A stretch of DNA of 36,885 nucleotides. Origin: an uncultured Planctomycetaceae bacterium. GTDB taxonomy: Bacteria; Planctomycetota; Planctomycetia; Pirellulales; UBA1268. The stretch is taken from contig CALCGM010000113.1 of assembly GCA_937900985.1 (NCBI GenBank), positions 1 to 36,885 on the forward strand, in the 5' to 3' direction. Made by a program: the position numbers and the translations under genes. The number at the start of each line of letters is the position of its first letter. Position 1 is the stretch's first letter. Of the stretch, positions 1 through 33,874 are shown one piece after another. Below the pieces are notes generated by a model. It saw only the letters and a list, made by a program, of their open reading frames with translations. It had not been told where the DNA came from and searched no databases.

Positions 1-77
1 GGGAGCCCGCTGCACCGAGCGGCTTTGACCGAGACAGCCGCCGCTCGCGAGCCCTCACGCCACTCTACACATGGTCG

Positions 78-6363: not shown

Positions 6364-7809
<1,446 letters not shown>

Positions 7810-13525: not shown

Positions 13526-13539
13526 ACCGGCTGCTGCGA

Positions 13540-14835
13540 TCACGCAAACAGCTCGGGCATCACGGTGCCGTCGCGAACGATCATCACCGGACGGCCCGTG
13601 TTGGTGAGATACTCCTTGGCCGGATCGATACCCAGCGCGTGGTAGAAGGTGGCTGCCACGTCGTCGGGGGAGTGGCCTTCGTGCAGCGGGCCTTCGCCCT
13701 TGGCGTCGGTCTCGCCGAGCACCCGGCCTCCCTGAATGCCGCCGCCGGCCATCAGCATAAACATCGCGCGGGCGTAGTGGTCGCGGCCGTTGCGGGTCGT
13801 GTTGATCTTCGGCGTGCGGCCAAACTCACCGGTCACATACACGATCGTGGAGTCGAGGAGGCCCTTCTGCTCAAGCCCCGCAAACAGCGCCGACAGGCCT
13901 TCGTCGAGCGGCGGCAGCTGCTGCTCCTTGAGCTTGGTCCAGTTGTCGTTGTGGGTGTCCCAGCCACCAAACGAGACGGTCACAAACGGCACGCCATGCT
14001 CCACGAGCCGTGTGGCCAGCAGGCAGCTCTGGCCAAAGTTGCTCTCGCCAAACGGCTTGGCAAACGCCGGGCTCTCCAGCCCGGTGTTGAAGGCCTCGCG
14101 GGCCCGCGGTGAGGTGATGATGGTGTGGGCCTGTTCGGTGAACTGATCGAGCCCTTCGATCAGCTGGCTCGACTCCTCGAGCATGCCCAGCCGCTGGTCG
14201 AGGTCGCGAAGCAGGCCCTGCCGACGACGGACATTGTCGATCGTCAGCGTGCCGCCGAGCGACACACCCCGCACGCCATACGGCTGCCCAGGCTTCGGCA
14301 CCGACCGGGTCGACAGCGCCGCATACTTCACGCCGAGGTAGCCGGCGCTCTGGTTGATCTTCGGAATCGCCACATGCGTCGGCAGCTCCTCCGGCCCGCC
14401 AAGCTCGCGGCTGACGACCGCGCCGTAGCAGGGAAACTCAAGCGACGGAATCGGCCGGTTGCCCGTGCTGACATACTGCTGCCCCAGCGGATGGGCGGCC
14501 AGCGAATGGGTGATGCCCCGCAGAATCACATACGTATCAAGACACGCCGCGAGCTTGGGGAGATGCTCGCTGACACGCACCCCCGGCACGCTCGTGCCGA
14601 TGGTGCCAAACTCGCCCCGGTGGCTGTCGGGAGCGTCGGGCTTGGGGTCGAACGTGTCGAGATGCGACGGGCCGCCCTCGAGGTTGACGAAGATCGCGGC
14701 CTTGGCTCGGGGCCGGGCCTCCGCCGCATGCGTCCACCGCAGGTAGTTGGCAAGCGTGAGGGCCGAGCCCCCGATCGCGCCAGCCCGCAAGAAGTCGCGG
14801 CGTGCCAAGCCATCACAGGTGCGGTGACGTGCCAT
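13540..14835 (-). CDS. DUF1501 domain-containing protein (alkaline-phosphatase/sulfatase-superfamily fold), Tat-type signal, 431 aa
   Basis: Twin-arginine signal ARRDFLRAGAIGGSALTLA, then NLEGGPSHLDTFDPKP and C-terminal GEFGRTP ... GRDH ... GGGIQGG. The ORF opens at 14883. ATG at 14835 is preceded by GGAGGA 8 nt upstream and is preferred. Confidence 0.9.
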   Translation of the reverse strand: MARHRTCDGLARRDFLRAGAIGGSALTLANYLRWTHAAEARPRAKAAIFVNLEGGPSHLDTFDPKPDAPDSHRGEFGTIGTSVPGVRVSEHLPKLAACLDTYVILRGITHSLAAHPLGQQYVSTGNRPIPSLEFPCYGAVVSRELGGPEELPTHVAIPKINQSAGYLGVKYAALSTRSVPKPGQPYGVRGVSLGGTLTIDNVRRRQGLLRDLDQRLGMLEESSQLIEGLDQFTEQAHTIITSPRAREAFNTGLESPAFAKPFGESNFGQSCLLATRLVEHGVPFVTVSFGGWDTHNDNWTKLKEQQLPPLDEGLSALFAGLEQKGLLDSTIVYVTGEFGRTPKINTTRNGRDHYARAMFMLMAGGGIQGGRVLGETDAKGEGPLHEGHSPDDVAATFYHALGIDPAKEYLTNTGRPVMIVRDGTVMPELFA

Positions 14836-14929
14836 GCTATCGGTCCTCCGAAGGTCGTCGAGACTGTTGATCGCCGCCGGCATGGGCGGCCCGGTGAACG
14901 AGGCGGTTGATCGTGGCGCGTGATCGAGC

Positions 14930-17743: not shown

Positions 17744-17911
17744 GGAAAGCCCCCCTGCAAGTCCCCGCCGCCATGCACGCGGCATCATGAACGCGGCGTT
17801 GCCGGCTCCACGCCCACCGCAACGCATCAACCACTCCAGTATATCGTGAAAAACGGCAGACCGTCTCCAGCAACTGCGAAAACCGTGCCAAACAGGCGGA
17901 TCCGCAGCCGT

Positions 17912-19468
17912 TTAGGGCGCGATCGGACGCAGTTCGCGGCCTGCTTCGTCAACCGGATACTGGGCCCCATGGGCTTCCAGGTCGGCGATCAGACCCCGCA
18001 TCATGTCCGCGAGTTTCAACGACTCAGTCTCGGCGAGGTTGCGGTGTTCGAAGGGGTCCTCACGCAGATTAAACAATTCATACCGCACCTTCGCCGGGTT
18101 TTGCTCGGGCAGGTAGTGGTAGACGACCTTCCAGTCGCCCTCGCGAAACACCGTGTAGTAGCTGCTGCGGTGGCTGTGCGGAAAGTGCATCAAAAACCGC
18201 TTCTCGCGGTCTGTGTGCACCGCTCCGGCAAGCTGCGGCGCGAGGTCGACGCCATCGACCACATGCGTCGCCGGCGGCTCCACGCCCGCAAGGGCCAGCA
18301 GGGTGGGGTAGAGGTCCATCACGGTGCCGAGCCCCTCATGCACGGAGCCCTCCGCAATCGGCAGCCGCTGCTGGCAGGCAGCTCCCGCCGACGGCTCCGC
18401 CCAGGCCGCGATGAACGGCGTCCGCATGCCGCCCTCGTAGTGTGTGCCCTTCTTGGCCCGCAGCGGAAACGAGCTGGCATGCCCATGCACAGGCCCCAGC
18501 GGAGCATCGCTGCCGTTGTCGCCAAGAAACAGGATCAGCGTCTCCTTCGCCACGCCGAGCGCGTCGAGGTGATCGAGGATGTCACCCAGAGACCTATCCA
18601 TGCCCTCGATCAGCGTGGCGTAGGCCTCCGCCGGCTTGGGCTTGCCCGACTCGGCATAGCTGCCCGCAAACCTCGGATCGGAATGAAACGGCGCATGCAC
18701 CGCATAGTGAGCCAAGTCGAGGAAGAAGGGCACGCCATCCTCAACGGCCTGGCTGATCTGCTTCTTCGCTTCGATCGTGAGGGCCTCGGAAAGAAAGGTG
18801 TCGGTGCCGTGGTAGGCCTCGAGATGGGGCACGGCACGCTTTGCATTGCCCTTGATCGCCCCGTAGCCATCCTCCCCGTAGTAGCTTCCCGGCTGGCCCC
18901 ACGAGCAGCCGGCGATGTTGGTCTCGAAGCCGAGGTTGTCGGGCCATTCCGAAGGCTCACCGATCGGCCCGAAGTGGGCCTTGCCGACAAACATCGTGCG
19001 ATAGCCCGCCGTCTTCAGGAGCCCCGGCAGCGTGACCGACGCGTCGTGCACCCCAGTCCAGTTCCACTCCGGAGGCCCAAACGGCCCACGGTTGTTTTCC
19101 TCCGAGCGAATCCACTGCGTCACGTGGTGGCGGGCAGCATTTTGACCGGTGAGGATCGACGTCCGCGTCGGTGAGCAGACGCTCATCGCATAGAAGGTGG
19201 AAAACCGCACGCCGCGGTCAGCCAGCCGCTGCATGGCCGGCGTGCGGTAGAAGTCGTTGAGCGGGTAGCGAACAGGCTCGCCATCGCCGTTGGTCATGAA
19301 AGGCACCGAGGTGTCCATCGGCCCCATGTCGTCGACGAGAAAGACGACGATGTTGGGCTGCTCTGTGCTCGCCTGCACAGCAGCCACAGCCGCTGTGCCG
19401 CAGAGCCCACAGACACCGAGGACAAGAGCGGCGAGCCCACCCGCCTTCACCATCCAACAGCTTTCCAT
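17912..19468 (-). CDS. sulfatase (formylglycine-dependent arylsulfatase family), exported, 518 aa
   Basis: PNIVVFLVDDMGPMD, the sulfatase signature SVCSPTRTSILTGQ (C-x-P-x-R), and GKAHFG. The signal-like N-terminus is MESCWMVKAGGLAALVLGVCGLCG. ATG at 19468 is preceded by AAGGGGGAG. The ORF-track start at 19531 would overlap the giant gene. Confidence 0.92.
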   Translation of the reverse strand: MESCWMVKAGGLAALVLGVCGLCGTAAVAAVQASTEQPNIVVFLVDDMGPMDTSVPFMTNGDGEPVRYPLNDFYRTPAMQRLADRGVRFSTFYAMSVCSPTRTSILTGQNAARHHVTQWIRSEENNRGPFGPPEWNWTGVHDASVTLPGLLKTAGYRTMFVGKAHFGPIGEPSEWPDNLGFETNIAGCSWGQPGSYYGEDGYGAIKGNAKRAVPHLEAYHGTDTFLSEALTIEAKKQISQAVEDGVPFFLDLAHYAVHAPFHSDPRFAGSYAESGKPKPAEAYATLIEGMDRSLGDILDHLDALGVAKETLILFLGDNGSDAPLGPVHGHASSFPLRAKKGTHYEGGMRTPFIAAWAEPSAGAACQQRLPIAEGSVHEGLGTVMDLYPTLLALAGVEPPATHVVDGVDLAPQLAGAVHTDREKRFLMHFPHSHRSSYYTVFREGDWKVVYHYLPEQNPAKVRYELFNLREDPFEHRNLAETESLKLADMMRGLIADLEAHGAQYPVDEAGRELRPIAP

Positions 19469-19479
19469 GATCTCCCCCT

Positions 19480-22400
19480 TCAGGCTGTGGCCACTCGCCG
19501 CCAACGAACACTCCTGGCGACCGCACCACACCCAAACACAGCAGTCGCCATCCCCACCAGTGGCAGCGTCAGCGTCAGCATACTGGCCAGGCCCAGCAGG
19601 ATCAGCAGCAGCCCCCCGGCCCGAGGTCCAAGTCGCCTCCAGGCCAGGCCACCGAACGTGGCCAGCACCCAGCAGCCGACGACCGCCGCCAACACAAGGG
19701 CCAGCCGCGTGCCGCGATCGACGAGCCGTGCATCCACCGCTTCCGCCGTGATCACGAGATCGCCGCGGGGCGTGGTGAAGAGAACCTCGCGGCCACGCGT
19801 GGGAATCGCCACTTCCAGGCTGGCCAAGCCTGTGGCTGGCGACTGCGCCGCGGCAACGCCGAGCGCGGCCGCGGCGGTGTCGTCGACGCCGCTGCCAAAC
19901 CAGCTGGTCCCGCCTCCCAGACCGCCACCCATGCCACCCAGCCCGCCCGCGCCGCCCATGCCGCCGGCAAAGCCATCGCTGCGGCCTTCGGGCAAACCGC
20001 CGCGACGGCTCTGCCGCAGCAGCGACTCCTCCGCCTCTTCTGCAAGCCTGCGATCTCCCAGGAAGCCACTGGCAGGGGCGTTGGTCGGCGACTGCTCGAA
20101 CTGCCTCTGCTGCTGACCTTCCAGCCCATCCCGTTCGAGACGAAGCTGATACCGCTGCACCTGATCGCGGAGTTCCACGGCCTGCTGCTGGGGCTCGCGG
20201 GTGGAAGCTTCGCCAGCCTGCTCACCTCCACGGCCGAGCGAACGCTTCTTCTCGATGTCTTCAAAATTGACGTCAAACCCAGGTCGTTCCGCGGCGGCTG
20301 CCGGATCCGCGACCTGCTTGGCGAGTTTTCGAACCGCAGCGGCACGCTCTCCGTCCGCCAGCCCGTCCCCAGCACTGCGACCAAAACGGTTGCTGTCGAC
20401 CCAAACACGATTGAGCGAGCTGGTCTCGGCCGCTCTGTCCTCCACGGGCCCCGGGGCCTCAAAGTTGAGATTCAGCTCCTTGACCACGTTCGTGCCGCGG
20501 GCCACCTGCTGGCCGTCGAAATAGGCCCGCAGCTGGCTTCCGTTGCCAGCGGCTGCCTCCATGGCCTCAGCCGGCATCTGCCCTGCCTGGGCTTGCGACT
20601 CCTCGACGATCGCCGAGTTGGTCATCAGCTCACGCTGCAGCCGATCGTTGCCACCACTCGCTCGGCCGGAGCCGCTATACGAATCGACGTAGCCCTGCAA
20701 CGACTCACCAAGCTGCAGGGCGTTTGTGCGAGCACGGACACGGGAGAAGACATCCTGCGACTCCGACGACGCGACCTGCATCAGCTGCTGCAGTTTCTTG
20801 TTTTGGTAGGCCAGAAAGTCGGCTGCGAGTTCGTCTGCATCGTCGGTCTGGCGGAGGGTGCCGTCGAAGCCAAACCAGCGGTGGGTTTCCGGCAGCCAGA
20901 GCCGCACCTGGCTCTGCTCCACATTGATGTTGATCGTCTCGAGAAACGGAAACCGCACCGACGCCTTCGTCCCAAGTGGCCCGAGCGTTCCTCCGTAGGT
21001 GAGCACCACGGCGTAGTCGAGGTCGCCTGCCTGCGTCTTGATCAGCGGAATGCCGACGCGACGACCGTTGTCGTCGTCCACCGCGGTGGGCTTCACCGGC
21101 TCGCCCGCGACCACCGCCGACCAGAGCGTGGCCCCGTCTGGGAGCTGCACCTCCAGCAGCTGCTCCGTCTTGTTGTCGATGCGGTATTCCTGGGTGGCTC
21201 GATACACACCGCCCCCATCCACCGAGAGCGTGGTCACGGCCAGCCCGATCCGAGCCCCCGCCGATTCGACCAGGCTTCGCGACCGCAGGCCGATGCCAAG
21301 CCGCGGCGCCACGGCGTCAGCCGCCACCAGATAGGCCTGCGTGGCGGTGCCGGGCAGGATGCTCGCGAGCTCTCGCCAGGCTGCCTGCTGGCGGCTGAGC
21401 TCCCGCACCCCCTCGCTCTCCGTGACCACGATCTCGTCGCGGCCCTGGTTTTCGAGCACCACGAAACGGTGCTCGGTGGTGCCCGTCTCAATCTGCGGCA
21501 CCGCCGCGGCGTGCGTTTGGTCAACGAGCGGCCCCGTGTGTTCGACGAGCACGGCAAGCGGGCCGATCACGTCGTCTTGCAGCTGGAGATGAAACCGCAC
21601 CAGGCCTGGCTGCTCGGCGACCGGCTCAACGGTCTTCTCCAAGAGCAGCGGCACATGCACCAGAGCGTCCTGCAGCGTTTCCGGCAGCAGGAACGACAGC
21701 TCACGAATGCCCGCCTCGGCGATGTCAAAACGCAGCAGCACTGTCTCGGCCAGTTCGCGGGGCGTGACCTGCACGTTGGTCAGCCCCACGGCCTTCACCA
21801 CCGGCTGCCGCCTGATCGCCTGAAAATCAGCCTGGAAGCCAGGCCCTCGTGCAAACACCGCGAGTCTGGCGAGCGTTCGCTGTTCCGCGGCAAGCCAGGT
21901 GAAGGTCTGCGGGAGGGGGATGGTCTCCGCGTTTTCCAGCCCAGCAACTTCCACGCTCACCGATGGATCCGCCTGCACGACCAGCGTTGTCGTCTGCCGA
22001 CGGGCGTCCACCACCACAAACGCCGGCGCGGCCACACGCATCCCGCCGTCGAGCGTTCCCGTGATCGTCGCCGACCAGGCCCCCGTCGCTCCGGCTGTCA
22101 GATCGATGACAAGCCGCGGCACGCTCCCCGGCACCACCGTCCAGCCCGACAGACCGCGGCAGTTGACCTGCTCCACGGTCACCCCCGCGGGCAGCTCCAC
22201 CTGCAGCCGATGCGTGGGCCGGTCATCGATCACACAGGCCAGCCTCGTCTCGAAGGTCGACTGCCGCTGGGCAATCCGCAGGAGGGTCTGCACGTCGACG
22301 GCCAGCTGCGACGCACGCGGACGGGGAGCGACCTCAAGCTCGAAGCGATCGTTGGCGAAGCGGTAGGCCTGGAAGGCCTGCACGGCCAGCGGGCTCTCAT

Positions 22401-25400
22401 CAGGAAAGCGATCGACCACGGCTGCGAGTCGGTCTGCTGGCGGATCGTCGCGAACGAGGCCCGCGGCCTGCGCCACCCGGAGATCGACCAGCGGCCCGCG
22501 ACGCAGCACCACAAACCCCTGATGCAGCACCGCCTCGGGCACGACAACAGCGGGCAGTCGCAGGGCCGCCTGCTCGCCAAACAGCACATCCACCGGCCGC
22601 GAAAGCCGCACCCACAGCTGCTCATCTCCCGACGCCGGCTCAAGCAGCGTGACATCGATCTGCTGGGGCGCTGCGGCATCGCCTTCCTGGCGGCGGACGA
22701 TCTCCCAGCCACGCACCTTCGGACCTTGCACCGCCTCCACCAGCCAGCCATCCGGCACCTCAAGCGTGAACACGTCTCGCTGCCCCTGCCGCACATCGAG
22801 ATCCACCTGCCAGGTGGCGTGCACCCCATCTTCACGGACGTCGATCACCGCCAGCGAGCGAGCGGTCAGCGCCTCATCGACACGAGCCGCCGACACCTCT
22901 GATCGCCACTCGACAGCAATCGACGCATCGGCCGCAAGCGCCGTCTGCAGCTGCTCGTCAGCCTGCTGCGTCTGTTGCGTGATCAGGCCGTCTGCTCCCA
23001 CGATCCGCAGTTCGGTCTGGGCGTTGGGCACGGTCAGCGCCAGCTGCGTGGCCGGGGCGGCAGGCAGCTGGCCCCGCACCGATCGCCACCCACCCCGCTG
23101 CTGCAGCGGCATGCGGATCACGAGATCAAGCGTGTGCCGGCCGATGCCTTCGACGGCGAGCACCACCAGCGGATCGACCGCCGGCGGCATCGCTGCCTGC
23201 TGTTGGGGCTCCTGCTCTCCGGCCGCCGGTGTTGCCGGCTCCACCAGCCGCAACACCGCCGCCTGGCCGTCGAGCGAGGCCCGCTCCAGCACACCACCGG
23301 TCAGTCGCAAAGGCAGATCCACGGGCCCTTTCGCGAAGACCTCCAGTTCCAGCCTGCCGCGGACCACGAGCTCCCCGCGGTCGTCGAGCCGAGAGGTGTA
23401 GGCCCCGCCTGCAAGCGCGAACGACGCGGGTGGCACGACCGCCGGCGACGCGTCGTCGCCCTCAGCGATCGCCTTGAGCCGGGTGTAGTGCTCGTAGGGA
23501 ATCAGCACCTTGCCGGCGGCTGCGAGGCGAGCCGCGCTCGGCAGACCACCGGCCTGCCCGGCGTCATCGCCGGCGCCGTCCGGATCGTAGGGGATGATCA
23601 CCGCATCATCGGGCACCGCCAGCGGGTGCCGAGGGTCGAGCGTCTCCAGGATGTCTGCGATCGTCAGAGCCGGTGCCGGCTCCGCAGGCTCCTCGCCGAC
23701 GACAGCGATCGCGGCAGCAACCAGCAGCAGCCCCACCACCACGCCCACCGCCCGCGGCGCTGCCCGCCGCGGCAGACGATGGGCCACCCATCGCACGGCG
23801 TCGATGACCGCATAGCAGGGGAGCAGCACGACCGCGACCAGGAAGCCAGGCTGGAAGAGGTCGTGCAGCTGCAGGCCAGCCGTCAGCTCAATCGCGATCG
23901 GAGCGGCCAGCGTGAGCACAACGCTGCACACGACGACCCACCGGCGAGCCCGCCAGCTGCCACCAGCCACCGCCAGCCCGCAGGCCGCCACCAGCACCGC
24001 GATGCCAACGGTGGCAAAGAACAGCCGGCTCTCCTGCACCAGCATGGCCGAGAGCCGTGGCTGGCCGCCCAGGCTGGCAAACGACACCCGGCGGCCCTGG
24101 TCGGCAAGCTCGATCGGCAGGCTCCGCACCCCCGCAAGCGCCCAGGCAAACGTCTCTGGCGAACCCTCGGGGATGGGTGTTGCAGGCACGAAATCAGCGT
24201 CTGGCGGCGGGGCTGGCTCGCTCAGCGGAGCCTCGACAGGCGGCTGATCCTTCGACTTCTCCTCGGCCATAACCTCATCGACCGCCATCTCGGCCTTGTC
24301 GACAGCCGCCGGCAGCTCCGGGGCTGCGAGCAGGGCCAGGGCGTTTTCAGTTTCCAGGCTGCGTGCTGGCGCATCGGTGGCGACGACCGAACGGCGGCCC
24401 GCGAGCAGGAGCGGGCTCTGGGCCTGCGGCAGGAGCGGCTTGAGCAACGGCGAGTGCCATCCGACACCCTCGATGCCACCACCGAGCTGCGCGAGCAGCT
24501 TCGCAGGTGTGACCAACGACCAGGGCCGCGCCGCCTCTGCGGCTGCAAACACGCTGCCCTCGCTGCGGACCACACGGTAGCCGTCGGGGAGCACCACCTG
24601 CCACTCGACATCTGCCAGCGGCACATCAAATCGCGTCAGGCCATCTTCGCTTCGCACAGCAAGCTGCGGCGCTTCCTCCGAAACCTCCCCCATCCAATCC
24701 AGGCGAGCCGACGGCCGCTGGTAGACGATCGAGACGTCCCGCAGCACATCCCCTCCCGGCTGCCCAGGCAGGCTGACAAGCAGGTCGTCGCCATCCCGCT
24801 GGGGCAGGGAGGGCAGGCCATTGATCGTCACCGACCAGAGCGTCGCTGCTGACGGGAGCGTCACCTGTAGGAAGGAGGCGTTGGTCCGCAGCAGAAAACG
24901 CGCCGCGGTCTGGCTCGTGCCACCGGCCCCCTGGAGCGTGACCAGGGCCGCCCGCTGGGTGATCGCCGTCGGCAGCCCGTAGCCGGGCCGCCGCTGGAGG
25001 GTTGCCGTGACGGATGCCGTGCCCGCAAAGCCATACACCCCGAGCAGCCGTCGCCCCACCTCCGCCTCCGCGTCGACAAGCTCACCGACATCAATCGGCC
25101 GCCCCGCAGTGGCCAGCGTCACGCTCAGCTCCGGGTTGCCTTCCACGGCCACCGCCGCCGTCTGGTAGCCGACCGCCTCTGCCGCAGCGCAGGGCAGCAC
25201 GAGCTCGGCCGTGCCTTCGACCGTGAGTGGCTCTTCAAAGTCGATCGCCAAGCCTGCCTGACCTCGGGTGCGGTCAGCCAGCCGTGCCGTCCAGATCCGC
25301 CTTCCCTCCGCCTCGCGGCTGGAAAAGTCGGTGACCTGCACCTTCCCCAGCCCCCGCAGGGAGATCGTCTTGGGGGTCGTGTCGGGGAGTGAAAAGCTGA

Positions 25401-27300
25401 GGCTGGTGGCCGAGGCCCGCTCGATGTCGTAGAGCAGTTCGGCGTGGGTGGCGACCGCTTCGTTGCCAATCCGGAAGAAACTCAACGACCGGGCGGTGAG
25501 TTCGGGTGTCTTCCGACTGGCGAGAAACCTCGCGGCCAGCAGCGGGCCCTCCAGCCGATAGGCAAACGTGCCCTCGTCGGCAGACAGCCCGAGCGCTTCG
25601 AGCTCGCGGCGGGCCAACGGAATCAGCCCCTCGATCCGCTCTGGCCGCACGGCGAGGTCGTCGGTGGCGGTGATCGCAATGGCCCCCTCGCCACCATCGG
25701 CTCCGGCAACACCGACAGCCGGGAACCGCACGGGCAGCTCCGTCCAGGCGTCGAGCCAGCCGTCAGGCACGTGCGTCGCCTCCAGGGTGAGCCGCACCGC
25801 GCCGCCGGCAGCCACCGGCTGTGGCAGCCCGACATGAATCCCGCCCGTGTCGTCTTCCGCACCGATCAGCGGTGCAAACGCAAGGGATTGATCCTGGGCA
25901 TCCGTCACCGCCGTCACCTCCCAGCCAGCCGGCAGCTGCAGCTCGACCGCAAACAGCGGGTCGACCCGCGGCGAAAGGGAGATGGTCGACCGCAGCCGCA
26001 ACTCGGCATCCTGCAGGGTCAGGAGCGTGGCGGTGGTGGCGTCGACGCCGGAGGCAGGACGAGTGAACTCGCTGCGGGCCGTCGCTGTGCTGTCGGCCGC
26101 CAGCCACGCGGCCACCGCCCGCGGCACTGAGCCACCCGGCTCCGGCTGCGCGACGCTCTTCGGGAGGATCTGCTCAAACACCGCCGTATCGATCGAGATC
26201 AGCTTCTCCGCCTCAAACGACTCGGCCTTCAGCCGCTCGTCGAGCAGGAGGCCAAGCACCGCGGTATGGCTGGTGACGCCGAGCGGCTCAATCCTCGGCA
26301 TCGTCCAGCTGCCGAGCATGGGCCGCGCCGCCGACGCTGTCACTGCGAAGCTGATCGTGTCGGTGGTCGGCTCATGCAGCTGCACGTCGAGCATGCTGGG
26401 CCCGCCATCGGCCGCTTCGAGCACCCCCCAGCGGGCCACCTCGGGAGCGGAAACCTCCGTCACCTCAAGCCCAGCAGGCAGCCGAAAGCGAAAGAGGTCC
26501 ACCGCTCCACGGAGCACCCGCATCGTCAGCACCGCATGCAGCCGCTCGGCCGACAGTGTGACCTCATCGACCACCACACTGCTCGCTTCCACCACCTGCT
26601 GGCTGGCCGTGGTGCGGTTATTCAGAGACATCGCCAGGGTCTGCTCGCCACGCACCACCGGCAGTTCAAAACGCGTCTCCTCCGCTGCCGGGTCGTAGGC
26701 TCGCGAGAGCACCGGAGTCCGCATCTCCACGTTGCCCGGCACCGTCAGCCGCAGCTGGGTGGCCGCCGGCGTCGGCACGCGAAACGACACCTGCTGCTGG
26801 GCTGCCGAGGCCTCGATCCTCGTGGTCGCCTCCAGCCTCAGCGAATGCCTGCCTTCGCCTTCCACAAAGAGCAGCAGCTGCCCGTCGTCGCTGCGGGCGA
26901 GCATGGCGGCGGCGTCATCAAGCGAAGCCGCCAAGAGCCCCACCCGCTCCAGCTCGAGCGAGACCGCGTGCAGGCCGGGCTCCAGCAGCTCAAGCTCGAG
27001 CGTCCCGCGGACGAACGCCCGCTCACCGGCCATCTCGACGCTGTAGTCGGCGGAGAGCAGCACGGCTTTCCTCGGCGGAGCCGTGCGAGGCTCCTCGGGC
27101 TTCGCCTTGGCCAGCAGATCTCGGTATTCCTCGCGGCTGACAAACACCCGCTCGGCCTGGCCGGCGAGCAGCAGATCGAGATCGGCAAAGGGCACGAAGA
27201 TCTCGCGGACGGGCGTGGGCTCGTCTGCGGAGGCGAGCCCCGAAAGCGCCGCAGCCCCGCAGCAGAGAAGCGGCAACAGCAGCAGGTGCAGGCTACGCAT
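19480..27300 (-). CDS. giant membrane-anchored envelope protein, two tandem ectodomain modules separated by a 4-helix TM cluster, 2606 aa, no known family recognised
   Basis: Uninterrupted 7.8-kb ORF with GC3 bias. ATG at 27300 gives a signal peptide, MRSLHLLLLPLLCCGAAALSGLASA, while the ORF track opens at 27459. An internal hydrophobic cluster lies at about nt 23700-24025 and a C-terminal hydrophobic cluster at about nt 19500-19705. Both halves resemble the upstream 1137-aa protein. The start overlaps the upstream stop by 8 nt. Confidence 0.8.
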   Translation of the reverse strand: MRSLHLLLLPLLCCGAAALSGLASADEPTPVREIFVPFADLDLLLAGQAERVFVSREEYRDLLAKAKPEEPRTAPPRKAVLLSADYSVEMAGERAFVRGTLELELLEPGLHAVSLELERVGLLAASLDDAAAMLARSDDGQLLLFVEGEGRHSLRLEATTRIEASAAQQQVSFRVPTPAATQLRLTVPGNVEMRTPVLSRAYDPAAEETRFELPVVRGEQTLAMSLNNRTTASQQVVEASSVVVDEVTLSAERLHAVLTMRVLRGAVDLFRFRLPAGLEVTEVSAPEVARWGVLEAADGGPSMLDVQLHEPTTDTISFAVTASAARPMLGSWTMPRIEPLGVTSHTAVLGLLLDERLKAESFEAEKLISIDTAVFEQILPKSVAQPEPGGSVPRAVAAWLAADSTATARSEFTRPASGVDATTATLLTLQDAELRLRSTISLSPRVDPLFAVELQLPAGWEVTAVTDAQDQSLAFAPLIGAEDDTGGIHVGLPQPVAAGGAVRLTLEATHVPDGWLDAWTELPVRFPAVGVAGADGGEGAIAITATDDLAVRPERIEGLIPLARRELEALGLSADEGTFAYRLEGPLLAARFLASRKTPELTARSLSFFRIGNEAVATHAELLYDIERASATSLSFSLPDTTPKTISLRGLGKVQVTDFSSREAEGRRIWTARLADRTRGQAGLAIDFEEPLTVEGTAELVLPCAAAEAVGYQTAAVAVEGNPELSVTLATAGRPIDVGELVDAEAEVGRRLLGVYGFAGTASVTATLQRRPGYGLPTAITQRAALVTLQGAGGTSQTAARFLLRTNASFLQVTLPSAATLWSVTINGLPSLPQRDGDDLLVSLPGQPGGDVLRDVSIVYQRPSARLDWMGEVSEEAPQLAVRSEDGLTRFDVPLADVEWQVVLPDGYRVVRSEGSVFAAAEAARPWSLVTPAKLLAQLGGGIEGVGWHSPLLKPLLPQAQSPLLLAGRRSVVATDAPARSLETENALALLAAPELPAAVDKAEMAVDEVMAEEKSKDQPPVEAPLSEPAPPPDADFVPATPIPEGSPETFAWALAGVRSLPIELADQGRRVSFASLGGQPRLSAMLVQESRLFFATVGIAVLVAACGLAVAGGSWRARRWVVVCSVVLTLAAPIAIELTAGLQLHDLFQPGFLVAVVLLPCYAVIDAVRWVAHRLPRRAAPRAVGVVVGLLLVAAAIAVVGEEPAEPAPALTIADILETLDPRHPLAVPDDAVIIPYDPDGAGDDAGQAGGLPSAARLAAAGKVLIPYEHYTRLKAIAEGDDASPAVVPPASFALAGGAYTSRLDDRGELVVRGRLELEVFAKGPVDLPLRLTGGVLERASLDGQAAVLRLVEPATPAAGEQEPQQQAAMPPAVDPLVVLAVEGIGRHTLDLVIRMPLQQRGGWRSVRGQLPAAPATQLALTVPNAQTELRIVGADGLITQQTQQADEQLQTALAADASIAVEWRSEVSAARVDEALTARSLAVIDVREDGVHATWQVDLDVRQGQRDVFTLEVPDGWLVEAVQGPKVRGWEIVRRQEGDAAAPQQIDVTLLEPASGDEQLWVRLSRPVDVLFGEQAALRLPAVVVPEAVLHQGFVVLRRGPLVDLRVAQAAGLVRDDPPADRLAAVVDRFPDESPLAVQAFQAYRFANDRFELEVAPRPRASQLAVDVQTLLRIAQRQSTFETRLACVIDDRPTHRLQVELPAGVTVEQVNCRGLSGWTVVPGSVPRLVIDLTAGATGAWSATITGTLDGGMRVAAPAFVVVDARRQTTTLVVQADPSVSVEVAGLENAETIPLPQTFTWLAAEQRTLARLAVFARGPGFQADFQAIRRQPVVKAVGLTNVQVTPRELAETVLLRFDIAEAGIRELSFLLPETLQDALVHVPLLLEKTVEPVAEQPGLVRFHLQLQDDVIGPLAVLVEHTGPLVDQTHAAAVPQIETGTTEHRFVVLENQGRDEIVVTESEGVRELSRQQAAWRELASILPGTATQAYLVAADAVAPRLGIGLRSRSLVESAGARIGLAVTTLSVDGGGVYRATQEYRIDNKTEQLLEVQLPDGATLWSAVVAGEPVKPTAVDDDNGRRVGIPLIKTQAGDLDYAVVLTYGGTLGPLGTKASVRFPFLETININVEQSQVRLWLPETHRWFGFDGTLRQTDDADELAADFLAYQNKKLQQLMQVASSESQDVFSRVRARTNALQLGESLQGYVDSYSGSGRASGGNDRLQRELMTNSAIVEESQAQAGQMPAEAMEAAAGNGSQLRAYFDGQQVARGTNVVKELNLNFEAPGPVEDRAAETSSLNRVWVDSNRFGRSAGDGLADGERAAAVRKLAKQVADPAAAAERPGFDVNFEDIEKKRSLGRGGEQAGEASTREPQQQAVELRDQVQRYQLRLERDGLEGQQQRQFEQSPTNAPASGFLGDRRLAEEAEESLLRQSRRGGLPEGRSDGFAGGMGGAGGLGGMGGGLGGGTSWFGSGVDDTAAAALGVAAAQSPATGLASLEVAIPTRGREVLFTTPRGDLVITAEAVDARLVDRGTRLALVLAAVVGCWVLATFGGLAWRRLGPRAGGLLLILLGLASMLTLTLPLVGMATAVFGCGAVARSVRWRRVATA

Positions 27301-30300
27301 GGTCGTCGGCTCCTTTCCCAGCGGTGGCCCCACCGTTGCCAGCAGCCGCTGCTGCGGCCGGCGGAGACGCCTGAGGCTGAGGGCGGCGACGGGTGGCCGA
27401 CCCGGCAAGCCACAGCAGGCCCACTCCCGCCAGGCCAACCGCAAAGAACTGGTCGACAACCTGCATCGCCAGCATCGGCATCAGGATGCCGGTGGCCACG
27501 AGCCCCATTGCCAGCAGCACGAGCACCGCCAGCTTGGTGGACAACCGCGACCGCACAAACAGCAGGCCAATCAGCGTCAGGCCACCGAGCACGCCGCCGG
27601 TCACCAGCCGGTGATCGACCGCCACGATCGCCAGTGCCCCTTCAGGCGGAGCGCTGGGCCGCAGGGCAGTGAAGCGATACGACCGGCCATCGGTCGCAAA
27701 CGACCGCAGCCGCCCCTGATCGACCGGCAGGCCTTCGCTCACCCAGTTCAGCAGATCGCTGTCGTCGCCCTGCCGCCACGGAAGGCCGTTGAGCGCTGCG
27801 AAGAAGTCGTTCTGCTCGTTCGTCCAGGGGCCGCGTGTGTCCAGCACGGCACGTTCTTCCGGCAGCGCAACCACCAGCGACACCTTCTGCACGGCCGGCT
27901 CGGTGGCCACGCCCTGCTGCTCGGGAAACACCGGCAGCTCAAGCTCCGCGCACGTGCCAGGCAGGGTGTATCGCATCTCCACAAGGCTGGGCTGATCTGG
28001 GCCCTGCGAGACCAGCGGGATAAAGAGCTGCTCCCCTTCGCCACGCTCCAGCGGCTGCGGCTGGCCATTGATGGTCAGCATGTCCATGTCGAACTGGCTG
28101 CCAGCCGGGAGGATCACCGCAAGCCGCTGCAGCACGCTGCGAACGCGGTAGATCGCCTGCACGGTGATCTCGTCGCTGCGGGTGACCACCATCCGCACCA
28201 CCGCCCGCTCGATGCTCGCCCGCTTGACCTCCTCAAGCTCATACCGCGTGGCGGTCACGGTGAGATTCCAGGCGTCGGTAAACTCAAAGGCTCGGGCCGC
28301 ATCAGCCCCGGCCGCCCCTGGCATCAGATCGTGCTGAGGGTCGATGGGCCGCAAGCCGCTCAAGCCTGAGGCCGGACGGATGTCGAGGGTTTCGGCCTTG
28401 CTGATGAGTATCTGCCCCCAGGCCCGATCAACCCCGCGGGGGGTGAGCACCGGTAGGGGATACTCGCCGCTCTCCCCAACGGCCAGCTCCGGCACGACCT
28501 CCTCCCAGGTCAGCGGAATCACCAGCTGGCCGAGCAGCTCGCCTTCGCCGCGAAACTCCATGGCCACATCCCCCTCCGCCACGTCTTCCGGCTGAGGGTC
28601 GAGCAGGCTCTTGGTGAAGCCTGCGTTGACGGGGAGCCTGGCGATCGCCGCCACGGCTGCAGGAACATCGATCCGCAGGGAGCTGACTGGGCTGTAGGCC
28701 ACCTCAAAGGTGAACGTGGCTTTCGAACTGACCACGCCCGGCTCCACAGCAACCGCCAGCAGCTGGCGGGCCGTCACCTGCGGCCGTCGTCGCTCCGCCG
28801 AGAGCGTCAGGCGGGCAGCCTCCTGGGCATACGCAAACGCCATCACCTCTCGCAGCCCCGGCGCCCGACCGTCACGAACGCTCGGCAGCTCGCGGCGGGC
28901 ATCGGCCACCGCCACCTCCTGCAGCCTGGATCGGCCTGTTGCCGTCAGCTGCAGGCTCTCCGGCCCCAAGACCACGAGCCTGCCGCTCGACCGCCGCACC
29001 GGCGTGGCGATCGTCGGCAGCGGGATCTCGAGCGTGCTCGCTTCGCCAGTCGCCGTCAGCAGGTTGGGGTCGTCGAGCGGCCGAATCAGCGTGACCAGCA
29101 GGCCAACCCGGCCAATCGCCTTGCCGGCGAGGTTGACCGAAAGCCGTCTGCTGCCATCGTCAGCCAGATGAAAGGTGTCGACGCTCGCCGGCTGACTCTC
29201 GCCGAGCTGGCGGCCCTGCACCCGGCGAACCTCGTAGCCCTCAGGCACTGCGAGCTCCAGCTGAAACACGCCAGCGTCTTCGATGCCGAAGACCGTCGCC
29301 ACGTCGAGCACGAGCTGATTCGGCTCGACGTAGGCCTCGATCAGCTGCTGGGCCTCGATCCGCGGCTGCACCGCCTCCACGGTGAGCACGAGCGAAAAGG
29401 GCATCGCGGCTGCCCGGTAGGCAAAGTCCCACGGTGTCGAGCGGAGCGGTTCGGGCAGCTCGGTCGCGTCGAGCTGCAGCAGCCCATCGGTCACCGCCGC
29501 CTCACCACGAAGCTCGTCGGCGAGCCGCACCGCCACGACTCCCTGCTGTCGGCTCACCCCAACCGCCTGCACACTCGGGATCGCCAGCGACCTGAGGCTC
29601 TCTCCGTCAAGCAGCTGTTCGAGCTCAATCGAGAGCTGCTGCTGGCCCCGCACCGGCTCAAACAGCTCCGCCGTGATCCGCTGCTGCCCGTCGACGTCCG
29701 CCACATCCCACTGCCGCACATTCGGGTCGAGCACTCGCGTGATCTTCTGGCTCGCGGGCACGTCCACCACCAGCTGCGGCAGCTCGGCGCGGCTCACGCT
29801 GTAGGTCAGCTCGGCACGCGTCCGCAGGAGCCCCTCGTCGACGGTCACCTCCTGCCGCGACTGCACGCTGGCCACTGCCGCCATGCCCGAGGCACCCTCC
29901 GCCTTGGGTGTCCAGTCGATGCGGACGCTGGCAGCCGGGCCCACAAAGGCGAGCACCACCGTCTCGCCTTCCGAGGGCGGATTCGCATCGCCGCTGTCGG
30001 CAGGCACCTCAGCTGCAGCGAGCATCGGCTGCACATTGACGGTCACCCCCGACTGGGGCACCCGAATCCGCCAGCGGTTGACCGCCGCCCGCGGCGACTG
30101 AAACGACACCGAGTTCTGGCCCGGCGATTTGGTGAAGGCCTTGGAGTAGTCGAGGGTGAGCGTCAGGCTCCGCGGCGTCTCCTGATCATGCTCAACCAGC
30201 AGCGCGGAGCTGCCGTCGTCGGCAACCACCACGCGGGCTGGCTCACCATCGATCGTGGCCACACGCACCGCCGCGTCGGCCAGCCGCAGGGGGATTTCAT

Positions 30301-30706
30301 GCCAGCCCTTGCCGAGCAGCTCGATTGCCACCCGAGCCCGCACGCGGACGACGTCGGCCTCGACCGTCGCCTCGCTCTCAATGTCGGTGATCACCGCGCC
30401 AACCGGCGGCGGCTCGTCGGGAGCCGGCTCATCGGCCAGCCTCGCCTTCCGCCAGAGCTCCTGAAACTTCTCGTACGGGATGAAGACCCCGCGGCCATCC
30501 TCCTCAAACACGCCCCGCAGTTTGCGGTAGGGGATGTAGATCGTCTGCTCGCGGAGCGGCTGTTCGGCGGTCTCGTCCGCAACGGCGACCGGCTGCGGCG
30601 TCCCGCCATCCACCGCCGGCTGATCCTGCCCGAGGCCCACCGCTCCCCAGGCCAGCGAGAGCGCCACACCCGCCACAACGACCACACCACGACAGCAGCG
30701 TTTCAT
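27293..30706 (-). CDS. large membrane-anchored envelope protein, single-module paralogue of the giant downstream protein, 1137 aa
   Basis: ATG at 30706 is preceded by GGGGGAAAG and gives the signal peptide MKRCCRGVVVVAGVALSLAWGAVGLG. The ORF track opens at 30817. A ~1000-aa Ala/Val/Leu/Arg/Thr-rich ectodomain follows, then a C-terminal 3-helix hydrophobic cluster (about nt 27400-27610) and a short Pro/Ala/Gly tail. Confidence 0.8.
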   Translation of the reverse strand: MKRCCRGVVVVAGVALSLAWGAVGLGQDQPAVDGGTPQPVAVADETAEQPLREQTIYIPYRKLRGVFEEDGRGVFIPYEKFQELWRKARLADEPAPDEPPPVGAVITDIESEATVEADVVRVRARVAIELLGKGWHEIPLRLADAAVRVATIDGEPARVVVADDGSSALLVEHDQETPRSLTLTLDYSKAFTKSPGQNSVSFQSPRAAVNRWRIRVPQSGVTVNVQPMLAAAEVPADSGDANPPSEGETVVLAFVGPAASVRIDWTPKAEGASGMAAVASVQSRQEVTVDEGLLRTRAELTYSVSRAELPQLVVDVPASQKITRVLDPNVRQWDVADVDGQQRITAELFEPVRGQQQLSIELEQLLDGESLRSLAIPSVQAVGVSRQQGVVAVRLADELRGEAAVTDGLLQLDATELPEPLRSTPWDFAYRAAAMPFSLVLTVEAVQPRIEAQQLIEAYVEPNQLVLDVATVFGIEDAGVFQLELAVPEGYEVRRVQGRQLGESQPASVDTFHLADDGSRRLSVNLAGKAIGRVGLLVTLIRPLDDPNLLTATGEASTLEIPLPTIATPVRRSSGRLVVLGPESLQLTATGRSRLQEVAVADARRELPSVRDGRAPGLREVMAFAYAQEAARLTLSAERRRPQVTARQLLAVAVEPGVVSSKATFTFEVAYSPVSSLRIDVPAAVAAIARLPVNAGFTKSLLDPQPEDVAEGDVAMEFRGEGELLGQLVIPLTWEEVVPELAVGESGEYPLPVLTPRGVDRAWGQILISKAETLDIRPASGLSGLRPIDPQHDLMPGAAGADAARAFEFTDAWNLTVTATRYELEEVKRASIERAVVRMVVTRSDEITVQAIYRVRSVLQRLAVILPAGSQFDMDMLTINGQPQPLERGEGEQLFIPLVSQGPDQPSLVEMRYTLPGTCAELELPVFPEQQGVATEPAVQKVSLVVALPEERAVLDTRGPWTNEQNDFFAALNGLPWRQGDDSDLLNWVSEGLPVDQGRLRSFATDGRSYRFTALRPSAPPEGALAIVAVDHRLVTGGVLGGLTLIGLLFVRSRLSTKLAVLVLLAMGLVATGILMPMLAMQVVDQFFAVGLAGVGLLWLAGSATRRRPQPQASPPAAAAAAGNGGATAGKGADDHA

Positions 30707-30939
30707 CAGCTTTCCCCCACCGCAGACAAGGCTTCCCACGCACAGATCCCTCGGCTGTAGCCTAGTTTCGAGGCGTCTTCGGTGCGACGTTCGGCCTGAA
30801 AACCGTCGCGAGCCCAAGCGGCGGCCCCCCTCAGTCGCTCAGGCAGCTGAAAAAGTTCCCCGCCGCCTTCCGGCAGGCAGACCAGCGAGCGACAGACGCC
30901 CGCAGCTTGCGAGCAGCCCCCGGGCCGCGGAGCCTTCGG

Positions 30940-32277
30940 TCAGATCCGCAGGAAGAGCTTGCGGCGGGCCATCCAGAAGAGGATCAGCCAGTAGATGGCG
31001 AGCACAGCTCCGCCGGAGACGAGAGGCTCGTAGGCGTCGCCGGCCATGTGGAAGAGCTCTTCTCCCAGGAAGGTCTGGAAGTTGCTCCGCAGGAAGCCCT
31101 CGATCAGGTGGGCGATCATGTAGGCGGCAATCGAGTTCATGCCGATCACCCGCAGGGGAAACGACCAGGCGGCAAAGCCGGTCATGTCGTTGAGCAGGTA
31201 AAAGCCGGCCAGCAGCAGGAAGCACCAGCCGCCGCTGACGAGCACCCACGATGGCGTCCAGATCCGCTTGACGCTCGGGCAGATGCCGAAGTGGTCGAGG
31301 GCGAGGCCCGCCCCCAGGCAGACGCCCCCGGCCACGATCATCATGCCGAGTTTCGCCCACGACGTGCGATTGGAGAGGAGCCAGCCGCCGGCAATCAGCC
31401 CGAGCAGCGACGTGCCGAGCGTGGGGATGAAGCTCAGCGTTGCATAGCCGCCGCTGTTGAAGAGAAAGGGCTCGGCCCGCGGGAAGAGGTTGAGAAACCA
31501 GGTGTCAAACTTCCAGGCGAGGTTGGCGTTTTTATTCCAGTGGGCGGCGAGGCCCTCGCCGTGCTCCGTCCAGCCGTCGTCCACGCCCACAGCGGCATAG
31601 TCAAAGTCGGCCGGTGGGGCCGGGAAGAGGGCAAACGCTCCCCAGGTGCCTACGAGGATCACCAGCAGGCTGATCCACCACACGCGTTTGGGAGCAAGCG
31701 AGATGAGAAAGAGCGGAAAGTAGCCGAGGCCGATCTGCGTGAGCGTGTCTTCAAAGGTGAAGTTCGGTTGCTCACGGCCGAGCGACCGCAGCCAGATGCC
31801 GAGCACCGTCAAGAGCACGGCCCTCCAGGCGGCATGCACCACCGTCCAGCCGAGGGCGTCGCCCCGCGAGCGGCGATGGTTGAGCGAAAGAAACACGCTC
31901 ACTCCAACGAGAAAACTAAACGACGGCTGAATCAGGTCGTGCAGCGAGCAGCCGCGCCACGGCACATGGCTCTGGTGATGGGCGAGAAACCGCATCACCG
32001 AGCAGTCGCCGATCGCCTCGCTCACGCGGCTGAAGTGCAGCACCTCCGCCATCATCAGGAGCATCACAAAGCCGCGATACGCATCGACCGACGCCAGCCG
32101 CTTCCACGGGGCAGGCTTGTCGGCCGCGACCGACGCATCAGGCGGCGGGGCGTTGGCTGCGGGCGGCTCTGCCGGCGGAGGCGGGGAGGCTGGTACCGCC
32201 CCCGCAGCCGGTTCGCTGGCAGCATCTTCCAAGAGCCGCTCATACGCAAACGCGTTGCCGCTGTTCTCGGTGTCCAT
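30940..32277 (-). CDS. polytopic membrane acyltransferase-like protein (heparan-alpha-glucosaminide N-acetyltransferase-like, DUF1624/DUF5009-type), 445 aa
   Basis: A Pro/Ala-rich N-terminal tail is followed by KRLASVDAYRGFVMLLMMAEVL, the family's R-x-x-S-[LV]-D-x-x-RG motif at the start of TM1. About 10 further hydrophobic segments follow. ATG at 32277 is preceded by GGAGGA (32283-32288). The ORF track starts at TTG 32280. Family call is by motif only. Confidence 0.65.
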   Translation of the reverse strand: MDTENSGNAFAYERLLEDAASEPAAGAVPASPPPPAEPPAANAPPPDASVAADKPAPWKRLASVDAYRGFVMLLMMAEVLHFSRVSEAIGDCSVMRFLAHHQSHVPWRGCSLHDLIQPSFSFLVGVSVFLSLNHRRSRGDALGWTVVHAAWRAVLLTVLGIWLRSLGREQPNFTFEDTLTQIGLGYFPLFLISLAPKRVWWISLLVILVGTWGAFALFPAPPADFDYAAVGVDDGWTEHGEGLAAHWNKNANLAWKFDTWFLNLFPRAEPFLFNSGGYATLSFIPTLGTSLLGLIAGGWLLSNRTSWAKLGMMIVAGGVCLGAGLALDHFGICPSVKRIWTPSWVLVSGGWCFLLLAGFYLLNDMTGFAAWSFPLRVIGMNSIAAYMIAHLIEGFLRSNFQTFLGEELFHMAGDAYEPLVSGGAVLAIYWLILFWMARRKLFLRI

Positions 32278-32398
32278 CAAGGTCCTCCGCGTGGATCCTT
32301 CATGAATGCCGCTTGCACCACAGCAAGCCGATCGCGTCGAGATGCTATCACAGCCAGCAAGCGGCCGCGCGACAGCCTCGCCTGAACGCCGGTCTGCC

Positions 32399-33874
32399 TC
32401 AGGCCAGGATCTCGCTGACCACCCGTCGCTCTTCGACGCCGCTGAGCCGTAGGTCGAGGCCTTGAAAGGGGACGGTCAGCCGCTTGTGGTCGATGCCCAT
32501 GCAGTGCAGCACGGTCGCATGCAGGTCGTTCACATGCACCGGCTGATCGACGATGTTGTAGCCGTAGTCGTCGGTTGTGCCGTAGGTCCTGCCCCCCTGG
32601 ATGCCGCCGCCCGCCATGAAGATGGAGAAGCAACGGGGGTGGTGATCGCGGCCGTAGGTTTCGTTGGTCAGCGTGCCCTGGCAGTAGACGGTGCGTCCAA
32701 ACTCCCCGCCCCAGATGATCAGCGTGTCGTCGAGCAGCCCCCGCTGCTTGAGATCAGCAATCAGGCCTGCCGTCGGCTGGTCCACATCCTTGGCCTGCTT
32801 CGACATGTGGTCGGGCAGGTTGTCGTGCTGATCCCAGCCCATGTGGTAGAGCTGGATAAACCGCACGTCTCGCTCAGCCAGGCGGCGGGCGAGCAGGCAG
32901 TTGCGGGCGTAGGTGCCGGGCTTGTGGACGTCGGGGCCGTACATGTCGAGCACATGCTCCGGCTCGTCGGCCAGATCAACGAGTTCTGGCACCGCCGACT
33001 GCATGCGGAAGGCGAGCTCATACTGCTCGATGCGGGTGGCGATCTCCGGATCGTGGAGCCGCTCGAGGGCGTGCTGATTGAGCCCCCGCAGGTCGTCGAG
33101 CATCTGGCGGCGAATCTGCGGCGGGCAGCCCGCGGGATTGGCGAGATAGAGGATCGGCTCGGCAGCCGCCCGCAGTTTCACGCCCTGGTAGCGGGAGGGC
33201 AGGGGGCCGCTGCCCCAGAGACGGTCGTAGAGAGGCTGGCCCGCAGCCCGGCCCGTGCCCCGCGACACCATCACCAGAAACGACGGCAGGTTGTCGTTGA
33301 GGCTGCCGAGGCCGTAGGCGATCCAGGCCCCCATGCTCGGCCGGCCCGCCAGCTGGCTGCCGGTCTGAAAGAAGGTAACTGCGGGATCGTGGTTGATCGC
33401 CTCGGTGTGCATCGAGCGGACCACGCAGAGCTCGTCGGCCTGCGCGGCGATGTGCGGAAACAGTTCACTGATCCAGGTGCCGCCGCTGCCGTGCTGCGTG
33501 AAGGCAAACTTCGAGCGGGCCACCGGAAAACTCGACTGCCCCGAGGTCATGCCGGTCAGCCGCTGCCCCATCCGCACGCTGTCGGGCAGTTCGGTCTCAT
33601 GCAGCTCGGCAAGCTTTGGCTTGTGGTCGAAGCTCTCAAACTGCGAGGGCGCCCCCGACTGAAAGAGATAGATCACCCGCTTGGCCCGCGGGGCGAAGTG
33701 CGGCAGCCCGGCAAGGCCGCTGCTGGCGGTGGCGGCATGCGTCGAGCGGCCCGCCAGCGACGCCATCGCAAGGCTCCCGAGGCTCAGCCCCGAGCGGCCG
33801 AGAAACGTGCGGCGGTTGGCCGGAAAAGCAGCCGCCGTGCGATCGTGGGTCATCAAGAGGTCTCCGTTGCTCAT
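32399..33874 (-). CDS. DUF1501 domain-containing protein, Tat-type signal, 491 aa
   Basis: NRRTFLGRSGLSLGSLAMASLAG (twin-arginine), YLFQSGAPSQFESFDHKP, WDQHDN, GGEFGRT ... GRDHH ... GGGIQGG. ATG at 33874 overlaps the upstream stop (ATGA). The alternative ATG at 33853 has GGAG upstream. Confidence 0.9.
   Translation of the reverse strand: MSNGDLLMTHDRTAAAFPANRRTFLGRSGLSLGSLAMASLAGRSTHAATASSGLAGLPHFAPRAKRVIYLFQSGAPSQFESFDHKPKLAELHETELPDSVRMGQRLTGMTSGQSSFPVARSKFAFTQHGSGGTWISELFPHIAAQADELCVVRSMHTEAINHDPAVTFFQTGSQLAGRPSMGAWIAYGLGSLNDNLPSFLVMVSRGTGRAAGQPLYDRLWGSGPLPSRYQGVKLRAAAEPILYLANPAGCPPQIRRQMLDDLRGLNQHALERLHDPEIATRIEQYELAFRMQSAVPELVDLADEPEHVLDMYGPDVHKPGTYARNCLLARRLAERDVRFIQLYHMGWDQHDNLPDHMSKQAKDVDQPTAGLIADLKQRGLLDDTLIIWGGEFGRTVYCQGTLTNETYGRDHHPRCFSIFMAGGGIQGGRTYGTTDDYGYNIVDQPVHVNDLHATVLHCMGIDHKRLTVPFQGLDLRLSGVEERRVVSEILA

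Follow-up and report, generated by a model that had tools for sequence, protein, structure and literature searches.

What might two adjacent bacterial genes do when their products come to about 3,700 amino acids (aa) in all and are covered by no Pfam or NCBIfam model? The window that raises this question, the whole stretch of 36,885 nucleotides (nt) analysed here (contig CALCGM010000113.1 of an uncultured Planctomycetaceae bacterium; G+C ~67%), carries on its minus strand gene 1 and, overlapping the end of gene 1, gene 2. The envelopes of Planctomycetes and Verrucomicrobia are unusual, and much of the gene set conserved in these bacteria is without assigned function. A preliminary description of this DNA had read the two products as three tandem, paralogous envelope modules, here called A (gene 1), B and C (fused in gene 2), and had the coordinates and lengths of both genes and their 8-nt overlap right. 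Judged by its sequences, A/B-C is a real, undescribed and widespread family of predicted envelope proteins consisting of three coupled paralogous modules.

The paralogy of the three modules is supported by two kinds of comparison. In BLASTP, the gene 1 product matches gene 2 residues 30-943 with an E value of 3e-17 and residues 1265-1963 with 5e-12, and the two halves of gene 2 match one another with 3e-11. Profile-profile alignment with hhalign gives a probability of 100% for every pair (A-B, E 7e-48 over 1020 columns; A-C, E 5e-50 over 1022; B-C, E 6e-59 over 1118), and all three alignments extend from the signal or anchor through the last transmembrane helix, so that the homology is end to end and far above chance. 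The blocks that had been aligned by eye also fall into register: the paired N-terminal motifs of A, B and C align, as do VVRVRA.../FVRGTL.../VVRGRL..., RSLTLTL/HSLRLE/HTLDLV, ...RIRVP/...RLTVP/...ALTVP and the G-R-x-x-x-F strand. Orthologs were aligned in two sets, A1 for gene 1 (43 sequences) and A2 for gene 2 (18 sequences).

The window pair has all the features of the A/B-C module family: a signal or anchor, the paired motif, a beta ectodomain of ~900 aa, a hairpin, about three transmembrane helices, and an A gene whose end is overlapped by a B-C gene. An export signal or anchor had been proposed for each module and is seen by hydropathy, as signal peptides in A and B and as an internal anchor in C. 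The AlphaFold2 (AF2) model of gene 1 (mean predicted local distance difference test, pLDDT, 81.9; 942 of 1137 residues at 70 or above) bears out the beta-rich ectodomain, terminal strand and helix cluster, with residues 104-1031 all beta, the hairpin and then the transmembrane helices, which hydropathy places at about aa 1033-1105. Within the ectodomain, the hhalign self-alignment matches aa 302-598 to aa 473-788 with an E value of 1e-13, and each of the three ~180-aa repeats carries in the AF2 model a pair of ~25-residue strands (293-317/341-365, 464-486/521-543 and 658-682/713-737). The loop after the first transmembrane helix of module A, read straight from the sequence, is rich in Arg and Lys, which by the positive-inside rule agrees with a cytoplasmic position of the loop and, in consequence, a periplasmic one of the ectodomain; the envelope location proposed earlier is plausible. 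None of modules A, B and C has a cytoplasmic domain.

Conservation, taken as the fraction of sequences with the commonest residue and averaged per 40-residue window, is uniformly high along the gene 1 ectodomain (0.57-0.81 over aa 41-960), stands at 0.63 in the window with the hairpin and the first transmembrane helix (aa 1001-1040) and lies at 0.38-0.52 in the windows over aa 1041-1137, which hold most of the transmembrane helices and the tail. Between E53 and W85, 16 columns of the module A paired motif are invariant in the 43-sequence alignment, and despite these the motif is a low-confidence region of the AF2 model.

Gene 2 shows, by hydropathy, a signal peptide, a transmembrane cluster at aa 1091-1206 and terminal transmembrane helices at aa 2530-2595. 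We modelled aa 900-1500, the natural B-C junction, with AF2 as a stand-in for complex prediction. In this model (residue 1 = gene 2 aa 900), a hairpin is followed by helices at 191-211, 217-242, 247-276 and 282-299, corresponding to gene 2 aa 1090-1198, and each half of the module C motif forms a short strand and then a helix. The fourth helix of the cluster, gene 2 aa 1180-1206, returns the chain outward and is the anchor of module C, whose paired motif begins only ~25 residues past it.

The two genes look translationally coupled, as had been proposed: the 8-nt overlap ATGCGTAG contains both the ATG of gene 2 and the TAG stop of gene 1, and AAGGAG lies 9 nt upstream of that ATG. The same arrangement recurs widely. 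At least 309 GTDB species genomes hold a relative of gene 1, labelled mostly as metagenome-assembled genomes (MAGs) of Pirellulales, Pirellulaceae or Thermoguttaceae, and the analysis covered the best 80 of these 309 loci, all from MAGs. An overlapping open reading frame (ORF) of 2500-2900 aa follows gene 1 in essentially every fetched locus with enough sequence. Among 65 related pairs, 58 have an 8-nt ATGnnTAR overlap (a GGAG-like Shine-Dalgarno sequence accompanies it in 53) and five more overlap by 4 nt. Across Planctomycetota the gene order, the fusion of B to C and the ATGnnTAR overlap are all conserved, and the A plus B-C pair is kept even in relatives at 21-25% identity. Recurrence of the same pair with the same lengths in ~65 independent loci rules out the concern that the long ORFs are assembly artefacts. 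In one locus (L025, ~7000-7250) gene 2 is split into two ORFs by a run of 100 N and not by a natural break.

The great size of the family and its span across Planctomycetota and Verrucomicrobiota were absent from the preliminary description, as was the DUF1559-type motif of module C orthologs discussed below. Full-length homologs of gene 1 number more than 856, at identities of 46-99%; none of them is annotated or has a Pfam domain, and identity over the 1137 aa is ~48% across the order. A profile built from the most distant matches finds hundreds of proteins of 2300-2600 aa in Verrucomicrobiota, each with two modules (hmmsearch E 1e-90 to 1e-134 against the module profiles), and an exhaustive profile search puts the superfamily at 4,986 clusters at 50% identity with E <= 1e-3, or 1,398 with E <= 1e-30. 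A possible A-x fusion is the 2372-aa representative P0387, in which the first ~1140 residues match the module A profile and other stretches are matched as well. The taxon labels of MAGs call for care: some loci are labelled Anaerolineales or Phycisphaerae, and one labelled Candidatus Kuenenia sp. encodes a gene 1 relative 86% identical in protein in a locus of 61% G+C. Kuenenia is low in G+C, and since 61% is odd for it the contig is probably mis-binned.

Table 1 Features of genes 1 and 2 (positions in the window; residues of the gene product named)
Feature	Residues	Position	Strand	Basis
Gene 1 = module A	1137 aa	27293..30706	-	ORF and start, homologs, AF2 model
Signal peptide, module A	gene 1 aa 1-27	30626..30706	-	hydrophobic aa 4-27; AF2 helix 3-21; cleavage inferred
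Low-complexity linker	gene 1 aa ~28-51			AF2 and hydropathy
Paired N-terminal motif, module A (xIYIPY..., VFIPYEKFQELW)	gene 1 aa 52-89	30440..30553	-	alignment
All-beta ectodomain, module A, tandem beta-sandwich domains	gene 1 aa 104-1031	27614..30397	-	DSSP of AF2 model
Three tandem ~180-aa internal repeats	gene 1 aa ~287-790	28337..29848	-	hhalign self-alignment and AF2 strands
Short helical linker	gene 1 aa ~961-1005			AF2 and hydropathy
Membrane-proximal beta-hairpin (GRSYRF) and three transmembrane helices	gene 1 aa 1008-1031 and 1032-1106	27389..27685	-	AF2 secondary structure, hydropathy
Poorly conserved ~30-aa tail	gene 1 aa 1107-1137			AF2 and hydropathy layout
8-nt overlap of genes 1 and 2		27293..27300	-
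Gene 2 = modules B and C, fused	2606 aa	19480..27300	-	ORF; orthologs 2500-2900 aa
Module B ectodomain, with paired motif aa 31-67 (nt 27100-27210)	gene 2 aa 26-1090	24031..27225	-	hhalign A-B, motif alignment
Inter-module transmembrane cluster: three module B helices and a fourth re-exporting module C	gene 2 aa 1091-1206	23683..24030	-	hydropathy, AF2 junction model
Module C ectodomain, with paired motif aa 1231-1281 (nt 23458-23610)	gene 2 aa 1207-2529	19714..23682	-	hhalign, motif alignment
Module C membrane-proximal extension (~370 aa), Gly-rich, poorly conserved	gene 2 aa ~2130-2495	19816..20913	-	conservation
Degenerate DUF1559-type motif in the module C extension (RTNALQLGESLQGYVDSY)		20677..20730	-	motif alignment
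Module C terminal hairpin (GREVLF, aa 2503-2508) and terminal transmembrane helices	gene 2 aa 2503-2508 and 2530-2595	19516..19794	-	hydropathy, motif alignment

We favour, at a probability of roughly 45%, a model in which A and B-C would form a conserved hetero-oligomeric scaffold of fixed stoichiometry in the periplasm, anchored in the cytoplasmic membrane. In this model, modules A and B would be exported by their cleavable-looking signal peptides and module C by the internal fourth transmembrane helix, and each ~1,100-aa module presents a double strand-helix motif and ~900 aa of beta-sandwiches before a hairpin that leads straight into about three transmembrane helices with short loops. Because the genes are coupled and B is fused to C, the modules would be made at 1:1:1, and this fixed ratio suggests that all three probably join in a single hetero-oligomer, which about ten bundled helices would hold. 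Consistently, one locus of a metagenomic lineage (L085, 6546-26583) has four consecutive genes (1152, 2746, 1305 and 1475 aa) encoding five modules, A, B-C, A' and B', in which A' is 36% identical to A and B' 46% identical to B; the pair looks partly duplicated, and multiplication of the modules as a set fits parts that work together. The even conservation of the ectodomain over its whole length suggests extensive fixed contacts, among modules or with partners, and not a loose spacer. Because the motif of module C lies so close to its anchor helix, both ends of the ectodomain would be near the membrane, favouring an arch or a membrane-apposed shape over a straight rod. Given that there is no cytoplasmic or enzymatic part, the role would most likely be passive and structural, organising the periplasmic face of the cytoplasmic membrane. 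Other components of the envelope might be held by the scaffold too, for instance the DUF1559 pilin-like proteins, which are abundant and share a helix motif with module C. The fold comparison lends support by analogy, in that integrin alpha legs and ribophorin I/Ost1, the closest structural matches, are both non-catalytic membrane-anchored beta-sandwich scaffolds.

Several points weigh against this model. We infer the scaffold role from sequence and predicted structures and the hetero-oligomer from the genetics only, and an enzymatic or transport activity that has escaped recognition could account equally well for the very strong conservation. The predicted TM-score (pTM) of the gene 1 model is 0.43, making its global shape uncertain; the junction model is poor (mean pLDDT 59) and no docking of the motifs is visible in it, so that it is uninformative on assembly. 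Moreover, in three of three verrucomicrobial loci examined no A gene accompanies the homolog, which is on its own there, indicating that a three-part assembly is not universal in the family. A bolder version of the scaffold, to which we give appreciably less weight, takes the pair as the core of a new envelope structure specific to the Planctomycetes-Verrucomicrobia-Chlamydiae (PVC) bacteria, a hetero-oligomeric beta-sandwich scaffold of megadalton scale that would line the cytoplasmic membrane on its periplasmic side. Its task could be to give order to the periplasm or membrane of planctomycetes, which are unusual, or to anchor the DUF1559 pilin-like proteins.

The DUF1559 motif, the only link from the A/B-C family to any named family, opens the way to a different role. 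Positions 9-45 of the 268 in PF07596 (DUF1559) are matched in 6 of the 18 gene 2 orthologs, with E values down to 5e-7, by the motif RxxNNLKQLGLAxxNYxDTY, which opens the module C extension (for example in P0128, P0131 and P0133). In the verrucomicrobial protein P0203 the first module ends with a fuller pilin-like insert (aa ~1129-1260), where a transmembrane helix is followed by a small domain ending in VLFADGHV. Motif and insert explain why many homologs are labelled 'type II secretion system protein', 'PulG' or 'H-X9-DG protein' in the source databases, and all of this would suit an accessory or anchoring role in a pilus or pseudopilus apparatus, similar to those of type II secretion systems (T2SS) or type IV pili (T4P), by which the many DUF1559/H-X9-DG proteins of PVC bacteria would be docked or nucleated. 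We regard such a role as improbable. The motif is degenerate in the window protein, and neither window protein has a Pfam match to PF07596 or an NCBIfam match (TIGR04294). P0203 reaches 17.5 bits against the GspG model TIGR01710, which has a cut-off of 88.85, and P0193 and P0231 do not match it. There is no prepilin cleavage motif, and T2SS, T4P and N_methyl genes occur near some loci only, at a frequency that, by judgement and not by calculation, is compatible with chance in genomes so rich in these genes.

The long array of beta-sandwiches, ~900 aa per module, would also suit an envelope-spanning tether or spacer that runs from the cytoplasmic membrane to the peptidoglycan or the outer membrane and sets the width of the periplasm, the more so as the N-terminal motif is the most conserved short element and verrucomicrobial homologs add a lectin-like N-terminal domain (Laminin_G_3 in P0306; similar by eye in P0203 at aa ~60-270). 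We doubt this, given that the 'tip' of such a tether would in module C be membrane-proximal, within ~25 residues of the anchor helix, that spacers usually evolve fast whereas this ectodomain is uniformly conserved, and that Pfam finds no peptidoglycan-binding domain. The very high conservation of gene 1 across the order could instead point to an unrecognised activity of the ectodomain, as an alpha-2-macroglobulin-like protease trap, a chaperone or cage, or a conduit for lipids or glycans, and the alpha-2-macroglobulin of Salmonella does occur among the Foldseek matches. We consider this distinctly unlikely: the alpha-2-macroglobulin matches have probabilities of 0.21-0.38 and TM-scores of 0.05-0.07, the proteins have no CxEQ thioester and no Pfam match to A2M, MG, AsmA, DUF490, TamB or Lpt families, and no AsmA/TamB/YhdP-like bridge or Lpt-type protein is among the 50 Foldseek matches listed. 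The modules show no motif for catalysis, nucleotide binding or a cofactor. Finally, both genes might belong to a polysaccharide-utilisation operon together with the sulfatase gene (17912-19468, minus strand), whose ATG, with AGGGGGAG ahead of it, lies 11 nt past the gene 2 stop, and with the gene upstream of gene 1 (30940-32280, minus strand), which encodes a 446-aa membrane protein matching the NagX transmembrane glucosamine N-acetyltransferase model (E 2e-37, under the equivalog cut-off). The preliminary description had joined the sulfatase with genes 1 and 2 in one coupled expression unit. The close spacing is real in the window but conserved in no related locus: a sulfatase directly downstream is absent even where the gene 1 product is 83-86% identical, and the same holds for an acetyltransferase beside the pair in the loci examined. 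A terminator-like hairpin (30859-30877, minus strand) also separates the acetyltransferase gene from gene 1. Flanking genes differ at every locus examined, which places sulfatase and acetyltransferase outside the unit and makes such an operon very improbable. It follows that the 'undescribed system' of the preliminary description is a real and uncharacterised family, but that 'system' overstates it, the conserved unit being two genes without travelling partners.

The rest of the window has a gene content typical of Planctomycetota, including genes for ValRS, QueF and a DEAD-box helicase besides the sulfatase. For the sulfatase, the ATG at 19468 is the most likely start, the GTG at 19531 given by the ORF finder being less favoured; if begun at 19468, its product opens with a signal-peptide-like segment. 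A PSCyt/DUF1549/DUF1553 plus DUF1501 pair is present in two copies, one on each side of the region (13540-17830 and 32399-36345, both on the minus strand). The ORF at 13222-14112 on the plus strand, listed as 296 aa, has a ParE toxin domain within its first ~92 residues and overlaps a DUF1501 gene on the opposite strand, and the true gene is probably short because of this overlap.

A definition of the A/B-C family can be turned into an annotation model and allows the misleading labels 'type II secretion system protein' and 'DUF1559' to be corrected. The two-gene unit also offers cell biologists a concrete knockout target with which to study the organisation of the PVC periplasm, and a fixed hetero-oligomeric scaffold, if true, would be a new structural component of the diderm envelope.

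How, then, do the modules compare with known systems? We know of no homologous or analogous system described in other bacteria, and the literature on crateriform structures, essential genes, cryo-electron tomography, DUF1559 and beta-sandwich or AlphaFold work yielded nothing on the A/B-C family. At E <= 1, Pfam and NCBIfam return nothing but noise for either window protein and, PF07596 in six sequences apart, nothing for the 18 gene 2 orthologs; a profile search of PDB sequences is without match. The absence of a named family had been part of the preliminary description, which gave BatD and DUF4139 as examples of families whose match would speak against it. BatD and the MuiA-like DUF4139/DUF4140 proteins have, as the modules do, a signal peptide, a beta-rich ectodomain and a C-terminal transmembrane anchor. 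Neither window protein nor any of the 18 orthologs matches BatD (PF13584) at E <= 1 or DUF4139/DUF4140 (TIGR02231) in Pfam or NCBIfam, and the genes of a Bat operon (MoxR ATPase, DUF58, vWA proteins BatA/BatB) are found neither in the window nor beside the pair in loci L001-L003 and L085-L087; a vWA protein upstream of the pair in L088 is the sole case. With the prepilin-like DUF1559/H-X9-DG proteins, many module C orthologs have the helix motif NNLKQ[IL]GLAxxNY in common, but they match only 37 of 268 profile positions, lack a prepilin leader and are unrelated in the remaining protein.

Foldseek with the gene 1 AF2 model returns integrin alpha legs as the best matches (E 2e-10), then ribophorin I/Ost1 (4e-10), and also ITIH1 and a mastigoneme protein. 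Identities are 8-11% and global TM-scores low, so the likeness appears to be one of domain type, a chain of large beta-sandwich domains, and not of family membership. Integrin alpha legs (thigh, calf-1 and calf-2; PDB 7nxd_A, 8t2v_A and 3fcs_A; E 2e-10 to 1e-7) resemble the modules in being a chain of beta-sandwiches with a C-terminal membrane anchor and a non-catalytic scaffold. However, integrin alpha has a beta-propeller head and a single transmembrane helix, whereas the window proteins, which are bacterial and periplasmic, have no head, no FG-GAP or Integrin_alpha2 Pfam match and three transmembrane helices per module; at 8-11% identity and TM-scores of 0.1-0.16, the domain type alone is common to both. 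Ribophorin I and Ost1 of the eukaryotic oligosaccharyltransferase (PDB 6s7o_E and 6ezn_A; E 4e-10 to 2e-8, target TM-score 0.25-0.31) are scaffold subunits whose tandem lumenal beta-sandwiches lead, like those of the modules, straight into a transmembrane helix. The window proteins differ from them in having no Pfam match to Ribophorin_I (PF04597), modules two- to fivefold larger with a paired N-terminal motif, and no oligosaccharyltransferase-like partners. The A/B-C family appears to lie outside every family tested. In building blocks and topology it belongs to a familiar type, that of membrane-anchored tandem beta-sandwich scaffolds.

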